Origin: Terriglobia bacterium
Lineage (GTDB): Bacteria; Acidobacteriota; Terriglobia; 2-12-FULL-54-10
Direction of reading: 5' to 3'
Length of the DNA stretch: 64,000 nucleotides
Assembly: GCA_963666975.2 (NCBI GenBank)
Contig: CAXVYR010000002.1
Coordinates: forward strand, 192,001 to 256,000
Shown: positions 34,737 through 41,713 of the stretch, piece by piece
Position numbering within the stretch: position 1 is the stretch's first letter
Layout: each line of letters starts with the position of its first letter
Notes under the pieces: generated by a model
What the model was told of the DNA's origin: nothing
The model's input: the letters and a program-made list of their open reading frames with translations, nothing else
Database searches by the model: none
Made by a program: the position numbers and the translations under genes

Positions 34737-34930
34737 GCAGAAATTCCTTCATTCACCCTGGCATGGACGCTCGAACGTCTTAGCAGCGAATCCGCGCCGG
34801 GTGTTTTTCTCCAGATTTCTATCCAGCTTTTATATCCAGCTTTTTATTCGGGGAGCCATCCTAGTCCATTTTGCGGGGTGCGTAAAGGATTAGGCGTCAG
34901 CGGGTAGTGGGGTCACAGATTGGCGATGCT

Positions 34931-35137
34931 CTATCCGCGATCTAGCCGAATTGCCTGAAGGGTAGCATGGATTGCTTTAGCACGTTCGTCCTGGGCCAGC
35001 CTTCGCCATTTTTTCTTCTTTGCTTCTGTGCTAGCCTTATCGCCCATTTTGTCTAGTTCGAGGGCCCTCCGCGTGTGCTTAATAGCTTCGTTGTCGTAGA
35101 AGGCTGCCGCCACTTTGTCACCCAAACGCCCTGCCAT
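34931..35137 (-). CDS. small basic hypothetical passenger protein (68 aa)
   Basis: RBS aaggggga before ATG, directly downstream of the transposase stop; stops next to the TIR. Confidence 0.55.
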   Translation of the reverse strand: MAGRLGDKVAAAFYDNEAIKHTRRALELDKMGDKASTEAKKKKWRRLAQDERAKAIHATLQAIRLDRG

Positions 35138-35151
35138 TTTTTTATCCCCCT

Positions 35152-36096
35152 TTATTCGATAAGTTCTCCAAGGCTCCAAATGTGATCCGTGATCCCTGCC
35201 TCCATCGCAGGCGTTACGCGCAGTGTGCCATGAATCCGACAGAAATTATAGTGAGCAAAATGCAAGGCTAGGGCAGCCTGCAAATTCTCCCATTTCTTGC
35301 TGAAAGCGTAGGTCAGCCGGGTAAGCCTCTTGCACCATTGCCGGAGAGTCCCATTCTGCCTTTCCACATGGCTAGTGCAGATGCGAGCCGGGTCTGGACT
35401 GCCAATAATCGGGGTTGACACGGTTCCTATGACCTCTCCTGGACTGTAACGCTCTCGACCATCTTCTGGCTTGCCGTAGACCTTGACCAGTTGTGCGTAA
35501 TCGACCCGATCTGTGAGGGCGTAATCAATCGCTGACGGGTAGCAGGGGAAGCCGTCCGTGCTAAGCTGAAACGGCCTGTCTGCGGTAGTCTTTCGCACCT
35601 TTGCAATAAATTCGTTTGTGCTGATTTGGTTTCTTTTCCCAAGGTGCCAAGCTACCACCAGCTTCGTGTGCCGTTCGAGTCCGATGAAGGTGTAGGCTTC
35701 CCCGATCTTGTAATTATTTAGCTCAGCAATCCATTTGTGCTGTTCTTTCTTGAACACGAACGACCAAATCTCATCAAGCTGCAAATCTTCCACGGGCACA
35801 TTCCGCAGCCGCTTTTCTAGCAGCCGTTCGCAGTGATCCCCGGCGGCTTTCAGCAGGTTTAGCACTGTCCGCTTTTCCACATGACAAAGGCGAGCAGTGC
35901 CCCTTACGCTGTTCCCTTCCACAAGGCAATGAAGGATCATGTTTACCTTCTCCAGCGGGAGCCGTGCATAGCCCAAGGGCTTGTCCTGAGGCTCGCTGTA
36001 CCGCTTCCCACACTGTTTGCACTGGAATCTCTGAATTGCTTTCTTTCCAAATTTCCCGGCCTTCACCATCTCGATCTCGCAATTGTGGCACGTCAT
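35152..36096 (-). CDS. IS1-family transposase (single ORF: Zn finger, HTH, DDE)
   Basis: CHNC/CKQC, GNSVRGTARL, LQLDEIWSFV, STDG, HVERQNGTLR..KRLTR.T.AFSK, TPAMEAG. Confidence 0.93.
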   Translation of the reverse strand: MTCHNCEIEMVKAGKFGKKAIQRFQCKQCGKRYSEPQDKPLGYARLPLEKVNMILHCLVEGNSVRGTARLCHVEKRTVLNLLKAAGDHCERLLEKRLRNVPVEDLQLDEIWSFVFKKEQHKWIAELNNYKIGEAYTFIGLERHTKLVVAWHLGKRNQISTNEFIAKVRKTTADRPFQLSTDGFPCYPSAIDYALTDRVDYAQLVKVYGKPEDGRERYSPGEVIGTVSTPIIGSPDPARICTSHVERQNGTLRQWCKRLTRLTYAFSKKWENLQAALALHFAHYNFCRIHGTLRVTPAMEAGITDHIWSLGELIE

Positions 36097-36178
36097 TTTT
36101 GACCTTGCTTTCTTCGAGCCGGTGAGCCAAAATGACGGAAGGTGTCACAACCTCGTTCTTTGGCTTCGGCCTGAGAAT

Positions 36179-36211
36179 GGCCCCGCTGGTAGCTATAACT
36201 ACTAACGGGGC
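36179..36211 (-). other. stem-loop immediately 3' of the passenger tRNA
   Basis: gccccgttagtagt-tata-gctaccagcggggc on minus strand; no U-tract. Confidence 0.6.
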
Positions 36212-36222
36212 AGTTATCAAAC

Positions 36223-36323
36223 TGGCGGTGAGGGTCCGATTCGAACGGACGGGAGTCTGGTGTTCTTGGCACCACTCCACCAAATTTACAGTCTGGCGCG
36301 TTAAACCGCTCCGCCATCTCACC
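36223..36323 (-). tRNA. atypical 101-nt tRNA: Ser-type body with GTA (Tyr) anticodon, 29-nt variable region, A7:C66 mismatch
   Basis: GGTGAGA TG GCGGAGCGGTTTAACGC G CCAGA CTGTAAA TTTGG [var arm] GTCCG TTCGAAT CGGAC CCTCACC G CCA. Confidence 0.85.
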
Positions 36324-36397
36324 ACAGAATCAAAGGCCAGGGAGTTAGGTTTTTGGAACCTCATTCTCTGGCCTTTTGTTTTGTGTAACATAAACGT

Positions 36398-36448
36398 ATT
36401 ATGCAATATTGCATGGATAATGTCAAGGCTTAAAATGCAATATTGCAT
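36398..36448. promoter_or_regulatory. overlapping divergent sigma70 promoters with two 14-bp palindromic operators (atgcaatattgcat)
   Basis: Minus strand TTGACA(36426-21)-17bp-CATAAT(36403-398); plus strand TTGCAT(36409-14)-16bp-TAAAAT(36431-36); palindromes at 36401-36414 and 36435-36448. Confidence 0.75.
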
Positions 36449-36469
36449 AAGAAAGCTTTTTGGTGTAGT

Positions 36470-36889
36470 ATGGCGCTGTGGAGGTTCATGGACTATGAAA
36501 CGGAAGATCGTCTAAATCTGATCCAGCAATGGTATGAAGTTCAAGACGACGCCGTGAAAGTAGCCTTTGATTACACGTTGCGTATACTGGCGGCGACAGA
36601 AGATTGGAACGATTCTAGCGTCAAAGAGTTTAAGGTTCTGACTAGAAAGCATGTTGGTCTTTGTGAAATTAGATTCAAAACAGATGCGAGACATCCAAAC
36701 GGTGAACCCTACAAGAGAAGATTTAGGCCGGTAGGGGTATGGCGTCCAGATTCTAGAGATTTTGTGCTTTTGTTAGGCTGTGAGAAATGGGGGATGAATT
36801 ATATCCCCCCAAACGCTTTTGATTTAGCGTTGGATTACAAGACTCAATATTTTGAGCAAGGAAGGGGCGCAATTTATGAGCACATTTAG
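36470..36889 (+). CDS. RelE/HigB(Gp49)-like toxin
   Basis: W.F..Y....N.I..W...GLCEIRFK...RFRPVG...FVLLLGCEK pattern; overlaps the downstream HTH gene. Confidence 0.7.
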   Translation: MALWRFMDYETEDRLNLIQQWYEVQDDAVKVAFDYTLRILAATEDWNDSSVKEFKVLTRKHVGLCEIRFKTDARHPNGEPYKRRFRPVGVWRPDSRDFVLLLGCEKWGMNYIPPNAFDLALDYKTQYFEQGRGAIYEHI

Positions 36890-37466
36890 GCAATTGTGGC
36901 TCAAACTTACGAAGAGCAAAAAATACCGAGAGGAGTTCGTTGCTTCTCAGGTCAAGCGTGGAATTCCCTTTCAAATCCGCACGATGATGAAGCATGAGGG
37001 GTTTTCCCAAGAAAAGCTGGCCAAACTTTCCGGTCTGACCCAAGGAGTCGTTTCCAGGGCCGCGAATCCCGATTACGGGAATCTCACGCTTAATACTGTC
37101 ATCAGAGTTGCAGCCGGGTTTGATGTTGCCTTTATCGGACGCTTTGTGCCCTTCAGTGAATTAGGGGGATGGTTTACTAACTTGTCGGAAGAGTCAGGGA
37201 AAATTCCCACGTTTGAGGAAGAGAACAGGGCGATGGAGCAGTGGGGGCCGTCGAGAGAAGAGGGTGACGACTCAAGCGTTGCAGCGGCGATTTCATCTGT
37301 GAACGACAGGTATGACAAACGACCTGCAACCAGAATGGTGGCAGAAGATACTAACGTGCTGACGAAATCGGAGGATGCTCCATCTGACCGGAGGGCGGTA
37401 GAGAATGTACTTGTTAATTACTTGCCCGAGGGTAGGAGCACAATCAATGCGGGGTTATTGCCATGA
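36876..37466 (+). CDS. XRE/HigA-like HTH antitoxin with long C-terminal extension
   Basis: QIRTMM..EGFSQEKLAKLSGLTQGVVSRAANPDYGNLTLNTVIRVAAGFD HTH; RBS ggaagggg. Confidence 0.82.
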   Translation: MSTFRQLWLKLTKSKKYREEFVASQVKRGIPFQIRTMMKHEGFSQEKLAKLSGLTQGVVSRAANPDYGNLTLNTVIRVAAGFDVAFIGRFVPFSELGGWFTNLSEESGKIPTFEEENRAMEQWGPSREEGDDSSVAAAISSVNDRYDKRPATRMVAEDTNVLTKSEDAPSDRRAVENVLVNYLPEGRSTINAGLLP

Positions 37467-37879
37467 CAAAGAAGGAACCAACTAAACAGATCAACGACGT
37501 CGAAGTGGTCGAGGAACAATTACCATTCCCTCATCCAGAAAATTATGCTTACACGAATGCTGCGCTGATTTCCATGTCAAGCTGGGACATTAGGTTGTCT
37601 TTTGCAGAAACACGCCCTAATTCAGAGGCCATATCCAAGGCTGGCGTTGTAATGACCCCCGCCCATTTTAAGGCGCTCACCGTTGCAATGTTCCAAAACT
37701 TGAAAAGTTACGAATCAGTGTACGGTGAGATTATCATCCCTCTGCCCAAGCAACCAGAACAAGCCAAACCAAAGGAAGAAGGCGTAGTTGAGAAGGGGGA
37801 GCAGGCCGGGAAAAAGGCCGAGACGGAAGGGATGCGGGTTCCCAGACCGCCAATCAAACGCACAACAAAGCCACGCTAA
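37463..37879 (+). CDS. DUF3467-like protein
   Basis: YTNAALISMSSWDIRLSF...VVMTPAHFKAL...NLKSYESVYGEI pattern; ATGA overlap with the antitoxin stop. Confidence 0.75.
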   Translation: MTKKEPTKQINDVEVVEEQLPFPHPENYAYTNAALISMSSWDIRLSFAETRPNSEAISKAGVVMTPAHFKALTVAMFQNLKSYESVYGEIIIPLPKQPEQAKPKEEGVVEKGEQAGKKAETEGMRVPRPPIKRTTKPR

Positions 37880-38250
37880 AGCCCTACAACCCCAGCAAGC
37901 GATCAGGTATCAATGCGGGGTTATTGCCATGACGCACAAACTTGGCGCATTGCCCATCGCCAATCTATGACCCCACTACCCGTCATCGGCATCCATCAAG
38001 ATTGGTATGCCCTTCCGAAAATGTTTTTTTAGACAATAACCATGACACCAAAGGTGCTGACTTGAGCCTTGGAGGTGGTCATTACCGAGAGTCACCGTCA
38101 GACTTACGGGATCATAATCCAGATTCCTCGATAGATTTCCCACAAAAACAGCACTCATAGCCCTTTTCCATCGTGAGGCTATGATGCCACGGAAGCCCGC
38201 CTGATTCCCATTTTTTCCAAACTAGAGCACTACCCAAACCCTTCTCCCAC

Positions 38251-38279: not shown

Positions 38280-38314
38280 GGTTACTCTTTAACATTGTTG
38301 AGGTGGTGATAGAA

Positions 38315-38764
38315 GTGTCAACTTATTTCCCCTCCAAGGGGGAGGTCCAACCGAAATGGTATTGCGTGGACGCGGAAGGACAGGTATTAGGCCGGCTGGC
38401 AACGCAAGTGGCCACTTTGCTGCGCGGCAAGCATAAGGCGGAATTTACCCCTTTCCTAAACCTCGGAGATCATGTCATTGTGATCAATGCGGCCAAGGTG
38501 CGCCTTACAGGCAACAAGCTGGCTCAGAAGGTATACCGCCATCATACGGGCTATCCTGGCGGGTTGGTGGAAATCAGCGCTCAGAGGATGATGGAGCGCA
38601 AGCCGGAAACCATGGTGCGCGAAGCGGTGCTCGGCATGCTGCCCAAGAATAAGCTGGGGAAGGCGATAGCAAGGAAATTGATGGTTTACCGGGACGGCAA
38701 GCACCCCCATGAGGGACAGAAACCAGAGCCTTACCGGTTGCTGGCTGCCAAGCAACTAAACTAG
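38315..38764 (+). CDS. rplM: 50S ribosomal protein L13
   Basis: WY.VDA...LGRLA, GKHK..FTP, HTGYPGG, GMLPKN. Confidence 0.98.
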
Positions 38765-38799
38765 AGACAGACCAGCCAGAACCAGTTCGAAAGGAAAAA

Positions 38800-39210
38800 A
38801 TGGAAGAGCAGGCGAAGGGCCCAATCGAGCAATATTACGGAACGGGAAGGCGCAAGTGCAGCGTGGCGCGCGTCTTTTTGCGTCCCGGCAAGGGCGACTT
38901 CCTGGTGAATGGCCGTCCGATGGACGCATATTTTCTGGGGGAGCCGCAGCGGGTGCGGATGCAGCATCCACTGCAGATAACGGAATTGACCGGGAAGTTC
39001 GACGTGCTCATCAATGTGCGTGGAGGGGGCATCGTAGCACAGGCTGGCGCAGTCCGGCTAGGCATAACGCGTGCGCTGCTGGTTTATGATGCCGAGTTGC
39101 GGGGCAAACTCAAAAAGGTGGGTTTCTTAACCCGCGATGCGCGGATCAAAGAGCGCAAAAAGTACGGCCAGAAGGGCGCACGGAAACGGTTCCAGTTCTC
39201 CAAACGCTAA
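38800..39210 (+). CDS. rpsI: 30S ribosomal protein S9
   Basis: [29 protein letters not shown]. Confidence 0.98.
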
Positions 39211-39250
39211 GGCAACAAAGGAAACAGCCACTTCACTACGAGGAGGTTTT

Positions 39251-40117
39251 TTGGCGGCAATTACGATGAAAGAGTTGTTGGAAGCTGGCGTTCACTTTGG
39301 GCACCAGACCCGGCGCTGGAATCCAAAGATGAAGGAGTATATTTTCGGCGAACGCAATGGCATCCACATCATTGATTTGCAGAAGACCCTCAAAATGTTT
39401 AAGGAAGCCACACGGTTTGTTGTGGAGTTGGCCAAGGAGGGGCGGACTCTCCTGTTTGTGGGAACCAAGCGGCAGGCTCAGGAAGCAATCGTCGAAGAGG
39501 CCAAGCGATGCTCCATGTATTTTGTGAACCAGCGATGGCTGGGCGGGCTGCTGACCAATTACGGCACCATCCAAAAGTCGATCCGGCGATTGAAAGAGTT
39601 GGATGAGATGTCGCAGGACGGCCGCTACGAGTTGCTGCCAAAAAAAGAAGTCATCAAGCTGGAGAGGGAGCGGAAGCATCTGGAGCAAAACCTGTCCGGC
39701 ATCAAGGAAATGCCCGGTCTTCCGGACGCCGTTTTTGTGATTGATTCTTTCAAAGAAGAAATTGCAGTTCACGAGGCCCGCAAGCTGGAAATTCCGGTGG
39801 TGGGGGTTGTAGATACCAACTGCGACCCGGACAAGGTGACATACGTCATTCCCGGCAATGACGACGCCTTGCGGGCCATCCGGCTATTCGCTTCCAAGAT
39901 TGCGGACGCGGTTTTGGAAGGAAAGCAACTGGCTGCGGAAGTCGCTTTAGAAGAGGAGAGCCGGGCAGCGAAGGCGGAATCCGAGAACCAGGAACTGGCC
40001 GCAGAGGATTCGCAGATGTATTCCCCTCCGCGAAAAGAGCCTGCTGTTGAACCGGCAGGGGAGGAAGACTTGTCCACCGATACTCCCGACGTAGCGGCCC
40101 CGGGAGGCATCCAGTAG
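39251..40117 (+). CDS. rpsB: 30S ribosomal protein S2
   Basis: [35 protein letters not shown]; AGGAGG upstream of TTG. Confidence 0.98.
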
Positions 40118-40347
40118 GGTTGTTTCACCCGCCCGGGATTTTCGGCGATTCGCCGCTGCCGGACTGAGCGGCTCCCACCCAGTCTTGTATTGGCAAGAGG
40201 TTTTCAAAAAAAAGAGGCTCTGAAATGCGGGCGGTTTGCAGGGGAAAGTAAGAGGCGATTCCGCTTTTGCCTCCTGGAATCAACGTCCCGCAAAAAAACG
40301 CCGCTGGGATTGCAGCGGCCATTCCAAAGGCAGGTTCGTCCGAAATC

Positions 40348-40980
40348 ATGGAAACTGAGATTAAGATTTCAGCACAAACAGTAAAGCAGCTTCGCGAGCG
40401 GACCGGCGCACCCTGGGCGGACTGCAAGGCGGCGCTCACCGAGTCCAAAGGAGACCTGGACGGAGCAGAGGTGGTCCTGCGCAAGAAGGGTCTCGCCGCG
40501 GCGAAGAAAAAGGCGGGACGCACCACGCTGGAGGGGTTGGTCGGCTCCTACATTCACGCCGGCGCAAAGATCGGCGTGCTGGTGGAGTTGAACTGTGAAA
40601 GCGACTTTGTAGCCCGCACGGCAGAGTTTCAGCAACTGGCCCATGATATCGCCATGCACATCGCCGCCTCGGACCCGCGTTACATTCGCAAAGAGGAAGT
40701 GACGCCGGAGATCCTGGAAAAAGAAAAAGAAATTTACCGGGCGCAGGCATTGGCATCCGGCAAACCGGAGAAAGTGCTGGACCGCATTGTGCAAGGCAAA
40801 ATGGAAAAGTTTTATGAGGAGGTTTGCCTCTTGGAACAACACTTTATCAAGGACCCGGGGCAGACCGTAAACCAGGTCATCGCCTCCGGCATCGGAAAGC
40901 TCGGGGAAAACATCAGCGTGCAGCGCTTTGTCCGTTTCAAGGTTGGTGATAGTACGGAGAGCACCTCCAAAGCGAGCTAA
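40348..40980 (+). CDS. tsf: elongation factor Ts (short form)
   Basis: [10 protein letters not shown]...[24 protein letters not shown]. Confidence 0.97.
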
Positions 40981-40993
40981 CGTTCCGTCCTCC

Positions 40994-41713
40994 ATGTCCT
41001 CCAAGCCCATTTTCAATCGTGTGTTGCTGAAGCTGAGCGGAGAGGCTCTGGCAGGCGCCTCCGGATTCGGCGTCGCTGCGGTTCGCTTTCAGGAAATCGC
41101 GCAGCAGATCCGCGAGGTCAGCCGACTGGGCGTGCAAACGGCGCTGGTCATCGGAGGAGGGAACATCTTCCGGGGATATGCCGATGCGGCCAAGGAAATG
41201 GACCGGGTGGCCGCGGATCACATGGGGATGCTGGCAACCCTGATCAACGCCATCGCTTTGCAGGATGCGCTGGAGAAGCAAGCGGTTCAGACGCGAGTAA
41301 TGACCGCCATGGCGATGCATCAGGTGGCGGAGCCTTACATCCGGCGGCGCGCCCTCCGCCATCTGGAAAAGGGCCGCGTAGTGATCTTTGCCGCGGGCAC
41401 GGGGAATCCTTTTTTCTCTACCGATACGGCGGCTGCCTTGCGGGCGATGGAGATTCAGGCCGAGGTGATCCTGAAAGCCACCAAGGTGGACGGCATATAC
41501 GATGCCGACCCGGTCAAGGTCAAGGATGCCAAGATGTTTTCGAAAATCTCCTACCTGGAAATGATCTCGCAGAATTTGACGGTTATGGATTCCACGGCTC
41601 TTTCGCTGTGCCGCGACAACAGCCTGCCCACCATTGTCTTCAATCTCAATGATCCCCAAAACATCGTGCGAGTCATTCTAGGGGAAAAGGTGGGTTCGCT
41701 GGTAAGCGGCTGA
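40994..41713 (+). CDS. pyrH: UMP kinase
   Basis: [28 protein letters not shown]. Confidence 0.98.

Follow-up and report, generated by a model that had tools for sequence, protein, structure and literature searches.

The window analysed here, a 64,000-nt stretch of DNA from a Terriglobia bacterium (assembly GCA_963666975.2, contig CAXVYR010000002.1, positions 192,001 to 256,000 of the forward strand), contains at 36470-37879 three co-directional, overlapping open reading frames (ORFs) that encode a toxin-like protein (ORF1), a helix-turn-helix (HTH) protein of the XRE family and a member of the DUF3467 family. All three lie inside a 3,080-bp element of the IS1 family (34902-37981). On balance, we think that they form a real tripartite cassette of the toxin-antitoxin type, in which the third partner is functionally linked to the other two and can be exchanged.

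The start of the HTH gene was picked by aligning 16 homologues, all 16 of which begin at the same place, making ATG 36876 the most likely start; the start of ORF1 (MALWRF) agrees with the MxLWRF consensus of its own family alignment. ORF1 and the HTH gene overlap by 14 nt, and the HTH and DUF3467 genes by 4 nt (ATGA). An earlier, sequence-only reading of this DNA had described three coupled ORFs with just these overlaps, and the ORF coordinates bear it out.

A genome scan with the ORF1 alignment yielded 16 further loci (L001-L016), all in metagenome-assembled genomes of Acidobacteriota, making 17 loci with the window. An HTH homologue directly follows ORF1 in every locus where downstream DNA is present. 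In 16 of the 17, a third gene either overlaps the HTH stop (11 loci) or begins no more than 24 nt from it, so that the tightly coupled third gene of the sequence-only reading proved to be a conserved position. Since the identical gene order recurs in 16 other loci, the arrangement is beyond chance.

The third position is occupied by more than one kind of gene. It is of the DUF3467 type in seven loci (the window, L001, L003, L005, L009, L010 and L013, the last cut by a contig end), belongs to a family of about 220 aa, here called X, in eight (L004, L006, L007, L008, L011, L014, L015 and L016), and encodes another protein, of 213 aa, in L012; L002 has no third gene. The third protein of the window matches Pfam DUF3467 (PF11950) with an E-value of 1.2e-11 (44.9 bits vs. 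a cut-off of 25), and the other DUF3467-type third genes with E-values of 5e-9 to 0.06, those of L001, L005 and L009 above the cut-off and those of L003 and L010 below it. A profile of 143 DUF3467 proteins nevertheless matches all six full-length third genes (window, L001, L003, L005, L009 and L010; E <= 1.4e-9). DUF3467 is one of at least three alternative third genes. The proposal of the sequence-only reading that the DUF3467-like protein may be the chaperone or sensor that binds the tail is not supported by these results.

The mean pairwise identities (DUF3467-type vs. X-type loci, respectively) were 54 and 49% for the toxin and 61 and 58% for the HTH core, compared to 16 and 19% for the C-terminal tail of the HTH protein and 32 and 36% for the third protein. 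At the DNA level, similarity between loci starts at a pair of palindromes upstream of ORF1 and ends at the end of the HTH core. A tree of toxin plus HTH core requires at least three changes of third-gene type: the DUF3467-type L009 groups as sister of the X-type L004 (support 95/91), and the DUF3467-type L010 as sister of the X-type pair L007 plus L011 (100/99). These switches suggest that toxin and antitoxin core stay together as a stable unit, and that tail and third gene make up a replaceable one; judged from these comparisons, tail and third gene are replaced together. The coordinates of the features are collected in Table 1.

Table 1. Features of the cassette, of the element that carries it and of related loci. 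Positions refer to the window unless another locus is named.
Feature	Locus	Position	Strand	Remarks
ORF1, toxin-like	window	36470..36889	+	ATG 36470, TAG 36887-36889; 139 aa
XRE-family HTH gene	window	36876..37466	+	ATG 36876 (MSTFRQLW; most likely start), TGA end 37466; 196 aa
HTH tail-coding part	window	37224..37463	+	residues 117-196, 80 aa, polar, unconserved
DUF3467 gene	window	37463..37879	+	ATG 37463, TAA end 37879; 138 aa; PF11950 match
Palindromes TTATGCAATATTGCAT / ATGCAATATTGCATAA, candidate operators	window	36399-36414 and 36435-36450	.	perfect copies
Promoter-like site TTGACA-17-CATAAT	window	36426..36398	-	11/12 matches; between palindromes; towards hairpin and tRNA-like gene
Terminator-like hairpin GGCCAG...CTGGCC	window	36323..36385	.	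A-run and T-run flanks; terminator-like in both directions; variable inner sequence
Irregular tRNA-like gene	window	36226..36323	-	anticodon GUA; Rfam tRNA 46.9 bits, E 4e-8
IS1-family transposase	window	35152..36096	-	314 aa; DDE_Tnp_IS1 32.4 bits vs. cut-off 24.1
Lys-rich ORF	window	34931..35179	-	82 aa; between transposase gene and left repeat; overlaps transposase gene end by 28 nt
Left terminal inverted repeat	window	34902..34928	+	26/27 bases match right repeat; no such matches in shuffles
Right terminal inverted repeat	window	37955..37981	-	
25-nt direct repeat, copy 1	window	37443..37467	+	HTH gene end and DUF3467 gene start
25-nt direct repeat, copy 2	window	37909..37933	+	between DUF3467 stop and right inverted repeat
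tRNA-like sequence	L001	4763-4851		long variable arm, anticodon UAU
tRNA-like sequence	L003	4764-4849		anticodon UAA; fits tRNA-Sec model, 9-bp acceptor, 6-bp D and 4-bp T stem
tRNA-like sequence	L011	4758-4830		partial
Family X gene, example	L006	5940-6599		about 220 aa
DUF3467 gene, Bacteroidales	L019	3974-4282		Bacteroides finegoldii record
DUF3467 gene, Bacteroidales	L018	2423-2749		

The first gene of the cassette encodes a protein that matched nothing in Pfam, NCBIfam, PADLOC or PHROGs at E-values up to 1 (up to 0.1 in one scan). A word-based search returned 46 proteins of 84-165 aa at E <= 0.001 among 47 candidates, and none of the 46 carries a Pfam domain. In an alignment of 44 members, six positions are invariant (H55, E60, R77, R80, E99 and K100, in the numbering of the 133-aa form) and two more, R62 and R78, are almost invariant. 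An AlphaFold2 (AF2) model built on the family alignment had a predicted local distance difference test (pLDDT) score of 95.7, and its top match in the Protein Data Bank (PDB) by Foldseek was HigB of S. pneumoniae (6af4; probability 1.00, template modelling (TM) score 0.62/0.68). Behind it came 5ja8 (HigB2 of V. cholerae), 7nbu (ribosome-bound HigB1 of M. tuberculosis) and the RelE entries 2khe and 3g5o. Overall, the top matches had probabilities of 0.9-1.0 and TM scores of 0.4-0.68. Given that fold matches are present and matches to sequence models absent, ORF1 is, on its predicted structure, a HigB/RelE-fold protein of a family outside every curated model, and is probably toxic.

The sequence-only reading had called the first two genes a HigBA-like pair. 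The fold, the toxin-first order and the XRE-HTH protein in second place all agree with this description, and upstream palindromic operators are a further likeness to the Gp49-type pairs of the RelE superfamily with an XRE-HTH partner. Pfam recovered HTH_3 and DUF3467 for the second and third proteins and left ORF1 without any match, including to its RelE, HigB and Gp49 models. The cassette also differs from HigBA and Gp49 pairs in its 80-aa antitoxin tail and in the third gene.

The HTH protein matches Pfam HTH_3 (PF01381) with an E-value of 2.2e-5 (24.8 bits vs. a cut-off of 23). An alignment of 17 sequences defines a core of residues 1-116, closing in an F-x-x-E motif, followed by a tail of 33-99 residues with zero conserved positions. 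In the window, 37 of the 80 tail residues are G, S, T, N, Q, P or A, 24 are charged and three are aromatic, and a charge-hydropathy plot places the tail just inside the disordered region (0.414 vs. a boundary of 0.431). The polar extension of about 80 residues behind the conserved part, as the sequence-only reading had it, is thus confirmed by composition and by the alignment of core and tail.

Despite its lack of conservation, the tail appears to be kept as a reading frame. Its frame is open for 53-99 codons in 16 of the 17 loci, compared to 1.4-9.6% of trials with shuffled tails, a statistic that is indicative only, the tail length being set by the first stop. The other two frames of the region contain stops in nearly all loci, and the tail frame is open up to the third gene in every locus that has one. 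The shortest tail of all, at 33 codons, belongs to L002, the sole locus that lacks a third gene. We considered a weak similarity at the C-terminal end of the tails as a common binding motif and rejected it; it coincides with the overlap with the ribosome-binding site and start of the third gene. A complex prediction for tail residues 117-196 with the DUF3467 protein scored 0.00 against a mark of 0.32; run without controls, it counts neither for nor against binding.

Upstream of ORF1, the window has two palindrome sites where 0.01 would be expected. Measured from the ORF1 start, 15 of 15 loci have the palindrome core, TGCAATATTGCA, at -34, and 12 of the 15 have it again at -65 to -68; these two places account for 27 of the 33 matches of the core (up to 2 mismatches) in 209 kb of sequence. 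For the operators of the HTH protein, the palindromes are the obvious candidates. An HTH_3 domain and palindromic sites in the promoter region, the two hallmarks of an HTH autorepressor, are both present, and binding is predicted. A terminator-like hairpin ends at -91 to -94 before the toxin start in six of the 15 loci (window, L001, L003, L006, L007 and L011), and these six sites are its only matches in the same 209 kb. As a promoter-like site on the minus strand sits between the palindromes, the same operators might control transcription in both directions.

The cassette is the right-hand part of the IS1-family element. Between the terminal inverted repeats we found, in order, the 82-aa ORF, which has no family match, the transposase gene, the tRNA-like gene, the hairpin, the operators and the three cassette genes. 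With the NCBIfam model transpos_IS1, the transposase scored 97.3 bits, slightly below the cut-off of 100. Like IS1-family insertion sequences, the element has a single IS1-type DDE transposase, GGnnnnTG-like repeats of about 27 nt and extra genes between them; it differs from these in having no visible target-site duplication (the flanks GGCGTCAGC and GTCATCGGC differ) and in its cargo, a tRNA-like gene and a three-gene cassette. Long members of the IS1 family carry passenger genes (ISfinder description).

Traces of the same element were found at other loci. In L003 (4478-6327) both repeats are present and all that is left of the transposase is an N-terminal remnant; this 1.85-kb derivative is likely a non-autonomous copy. 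The right repeat lies 14 nt past the DUF3467 gene in L001 and 40 nt past the HTH gene in L002. About 3-4 chance matches are expected for the 13-nt repeat cores at up to 2 mismatches in the sequence searched; it is the positions and the 27-nt matches that carry the argument. The cassette is plausibly an addiction and/or defence module on the transposon.

Some further features of the neighbourhood were recorded. In the window, the transposon lies directly upstream of rplM-rpsI-rpsB-tsf-pyrH (38303-41713), and the G+C content of the cassette region is 0.40-0.46 vs. 0.51-0.66 in the flanks. Acido-Lenti-1 small RNA matches above the gathering score occur near two cassettes (L004, 2156-2199; L014, 2880-2925 and 6238-6283). 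A perfect 25-nt direct repeat brackets the DUF3467 gene of the window. It resembles a recent rearrangement, being confined to the window and found at none of the 15 other loci tested, and could permit precise loss of the third gene.

The tRNA-like gene of the element is irregular. ARAGORN did not find it; the Rfam alignment gives it a 7/5 arrangement, and it has an odd D arm and a variable arm of 27 nt with a 9-bp stem and a 7-nt loop. Four of the 17 loci have a tRNA-like sequence immediately upstream of the cassette, in the opposite orientation (Table 1). We considered the tRNA as the integration site of a tRNA-targeting island and rejected this idea, since the inverted repeats enclose the tRNA-like gene in the window and in L003 alike. 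According to the excerpted text of Mukai et al. (2017, PMC5389517), allo-tRNAs of Acidobacteria are often near toxin-antitoxin systems, one copy overlaps a transposon-related ORF, and UAU is the commonest allo-tRNA group. That text names no toxin-antitoxin families, and one of the supplementary files has zero matches for toxin- or transposase-type terms. We consider the gene of the window allo-tRNA-like: in both settings irregular, long-armed tRNAs stand beside toxin-antitoxin and transposon genes in Acidobacteria, with UAU as the anticodon in L001. It differs from the allo-tRNAs, whose 12-bp acceptor branch is 8/4 or 9/3 and whose variable arm and D stem are long, in the 7/5 arrangement of its Rfam alignment and in its anticodon GUA.

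What, then, are the third proteins? The AF2 model of the DUF3467 protein (pLDDT 88.5) shows a three-strand sheet and then one long helix (residues 33-87), and its C-terminus is rich in Lys, Glu and Pro. It is a divergent member of its family, with 216 representatives at E <= 0.001 and only 4 at E <= 1e-10. The sequence-only reading had expected a third partner other than SecB. Indeed, hhalign gave a probability of 0.1% for the DUF3467 profile against E. coli SecB, and SecB is missing from the best 50 PDB fold matches, which together confirm this expectation. The corresponding hhalign probability for family X was 0.6%, and comparison of the X and DUF3467 profiles found the two unrelated. Sequence searches of the PDB with either profile returned nothing below an E-value of 0.1.

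Other resources added little. Family X has no match in Pfam, NCBIfam or PADLOC and falls only into 'hypothetical protein' clusters in the Atlas, where DUF3467 has no usable match when PF11950 is left out. A viral fold library matched DUF3467 mostly to uncharacterised proteins, none at E <= 0.001, and PADLOC and NCBIfam gave nothing meaningful for X, the L012 protein or the other DUF3467 proteins. None of the 11 longest representatives scanned, of 150 listed, has its DUF3467 domain fused to an HTH or antitoxin domain; three of them (P0141, P0165 and P0089) have two DUF3467 stretches each, and P0147 is a DUF3800-DUF3467 fusion.

The DUF3467 family is not confined to toxin-antitoxin contexts, as shown by members found beside rpsL-rpsG-fusA. 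A tblastn search with the DUF3467 protein of the window gave no plasmid match and one unannotated match in the phage set, a Bacteroidales-like rpoC-rpsL stretch. In two Bacteroidales records (L018 and L019), reached with a tandem DUF3467 query or with the window protein, the gene is flanked by pckA or rpoC on one side and by rpsL-rpsG-fusA on the other, and a toxin-antitoxin pair is absent. This synteny hints at a link to translation or transcription for the wider family.

The closest known systems are the toxin-antitoxin-chaperone (TAC) modules, that is, HigBAC of M. tuberculosis (Rv1955-1957) and of E. coli, and CmdTAC. The sequence-only reading had proposed a TAC-like architecture, and the arrangement supports it: in both, three co-directional and tightly packed genes encode a HigB-fold toxin, an HTH antitoxin (here of the XRE family) with an unconserved C-terminal extension and a small third protein, and in both a homologue without the third gene has the shortest extension (here one locus, L002). 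As excerpted from PMC5105189, TAC antitoxins bear a C-terminal ChAD extension, ChAD regions bear no significant resemblance to each other from one TAC to the next, and deletion of the extension makes the antitoxin chaperone-independent. There are also differences. The third protein is SecB-like in TAC modules and not so here, and the aromatic pattern of ChAD is not evident in the cassette tails. Moreover, TAC modules combine a constant chaperone family with a varying toxin-antitoxin family, whereas in these loci it is the third family that varies and the toxin-antitoxin family that stays the same.

We propose the following explanation. From what is known of its family, ORF1 would be a HigB/RelE-fold enzyme, probably a ribosome-dependent mRNA endonuclease, and the 116-aa HTH core would both neutralise it and, through the two palindromes that overlie the promoter region, repress the operon. 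The third position and the unconserved tail would be an exchangeable module, filled by DUF3467 here and by the unrelated X of about 220 aa in other lineages, with the tail translated and the third gene translationally coupled to it. The third protein may act on the antitoxin tail as a stabiliser or sensor, by analogy with SecB and ChAD in TAC modules, in which case release of the toxin would depend on the state of the third protein. The cassette is cargo of the IS1-family transposon and would stabilise the transposon and/or defend its host.

The action on the tail is the part that we put forward tentatively. It is favoured because the tail stays translated and leads straight into the third gene, because tail and third gene are replaced together, because the known ChAD tails, in the text excerpted above, share just as little similarity and an antitoxin that has lost its ChAD tail no longer needs the chaperone, and because the chaperone can be the phage sensor in HigBAC (excerpt of bioRxiv 10.1101/2024.02.24.581848). 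The proposal in its full form, that tail and third protein (DUF3467 or X) are a swappable stabiliser/sensor module doing the job of ChAD and SecB with unrelated folds, and that the whole unit including the operator-flanked allo-tRNA-like gene is transposon cargo, is on the doubtful side.

A number of observations weigh against our explanation as a whole. For ORF1, they are the lack of any curated family match, the weak E-values of the Foldseek matches (0.02-0.2) and a profile search of PDB sequences that returned nothing below an E-value of 0.1. For the tail, a single locus (n=1) ties a short tail to the absence of a third gene, the aromatic residues are few (0-6 per tail), no motif specific to a class of third gene was seen in the tails of the 17-sequence alignment, and the one C-terminal similarity had to be rejected. 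As to the third proteins, neither resembles SecB, nor do they resemble each other, and the DUF3467 proteins linked to toxin-antitoxin genes fall in at least three places of a poorly resolved DUF3467 tree. Finally, the PDB fold matches of DUF3467 that are best by probability are nucleic-acid binders, namely Pur-alpha of Borrelia (3nm7, 0.96) and PC4 (0.82-0.87). These fold hints and the Bacteroidales synteny, both of which suggest nucleic acid or the ribosome, and the lack of a class-specific tail motif are the reasons why we rate the role of the tail low.

The same fold hints lead to an alternative, in our view unlikely, in which DUF3467, as a small protein that binds nucleic acid or the ribosome, acts at the target of the toxin (the ribosomal A site, the mRNA or the allo-tRNA-like RNA), tuning or rescuing HigB-like cleavage, and the tail is a labile translated linker that couples expression. 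The existence of tandem DUF3467 proteins, expected of PUR-like repeats that pair, the position of DUF3467 directly upstream of rpsL-rpsG-fusA in Bacteroidales and the tRNA-like gene adjoining the cassette in four of 17 loci are all consistent with this alternative. However, the matches to PC4 and Pur-alpha are weak (E-values of 0.1-0.3, TM scores of 0.26-0.51), and the Bacteroidales synteny amounts to two records from a single taxonomic order. Furthermore, an unrelated protein of 220 aa with no such hints fills the same position in eight loci, only one of which (L011) has a tRNA-like sequence.

A slightly less probable alternative is that the third gene is an unrelated passenger on the autoregulated toxin-antitoxin promoter, with a function of its own, and that the variable tail is neutral read-through. 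It would account for a third gene that comes from at least three unrelated families, has been replaced repeatedly and is missing in one locus, and for a tail without conservation; the excerpted texts on Caulobacter HigBA operons (PMC13384398; bioRxiv 10.1101/2020.07.22.216945) also describe a functionally distinct third gene downstream. It does not sit well with the close junction to the HTH stop in 16 of 17 loci, with a tail frame that stays open as far as every third gene, or with the recurrence of just two families in 15 of 16 cases, which would not be expected of random passengers. Least probable is that the cassette is not a toxin-antitoxin system and that ORF1 is a catalytically inert RelE-fold partner of the HTH repressor, the pair switching the third gene or the transposon: ORF1 matches no toxin family model and a strong promoter-like site that faces the tRNA-like gene, in the opposite orientation, is likewise flanked by the operators, but 44 members of the ORF1 family retain the invariant basic and acidic positions (H, E, R, R, R, E, K), and the fold, gene order and 14-nt overlap are typical of HigBA pairs.

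The association of allo-tRNAs with toxin-antitoxin genes is, in general terms, already published. New here are the ORF1 family, the conserved three-part layout with its replaceable third family, DUF3467 as a partner, and a bounded element of IS1 type that carries the whole cassette. In the literature searched, DUF3467 appears in one paper, as a listed gene, and PF11950 not at all; the titles and abstract openings on TAC and tripartite toxin-antitoxin systems cover SecB-based TACs, HipBST, paaR-type systems and Caulobacter higBA with a regulator, and mention no chaperone-type partner other than SecB.

The transposon context links the published and unexplained association of allo-tRNAs, toxin-antitoxin genes and transposons to one bounded element, and the loci provide a natural test series, in which the same toxin and antitoxin core is combined with DUF3467, X or another protein, or has no third gene at all. 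Should the third proteins indeed exert control over the antitoxin through its tail, three-part control of toxin-antitoxin systems would not be bound to SecB, and would represent a general design that was arrived at anew with different small proteins. In that case, the 'chaperone addiction' of toxin-antitoxin pairs would have arisen more than once, DUF3467 (216 representative clusters) and the 220-aa family X would each gain a first function, and the search space for defence and addiction modules would widen.

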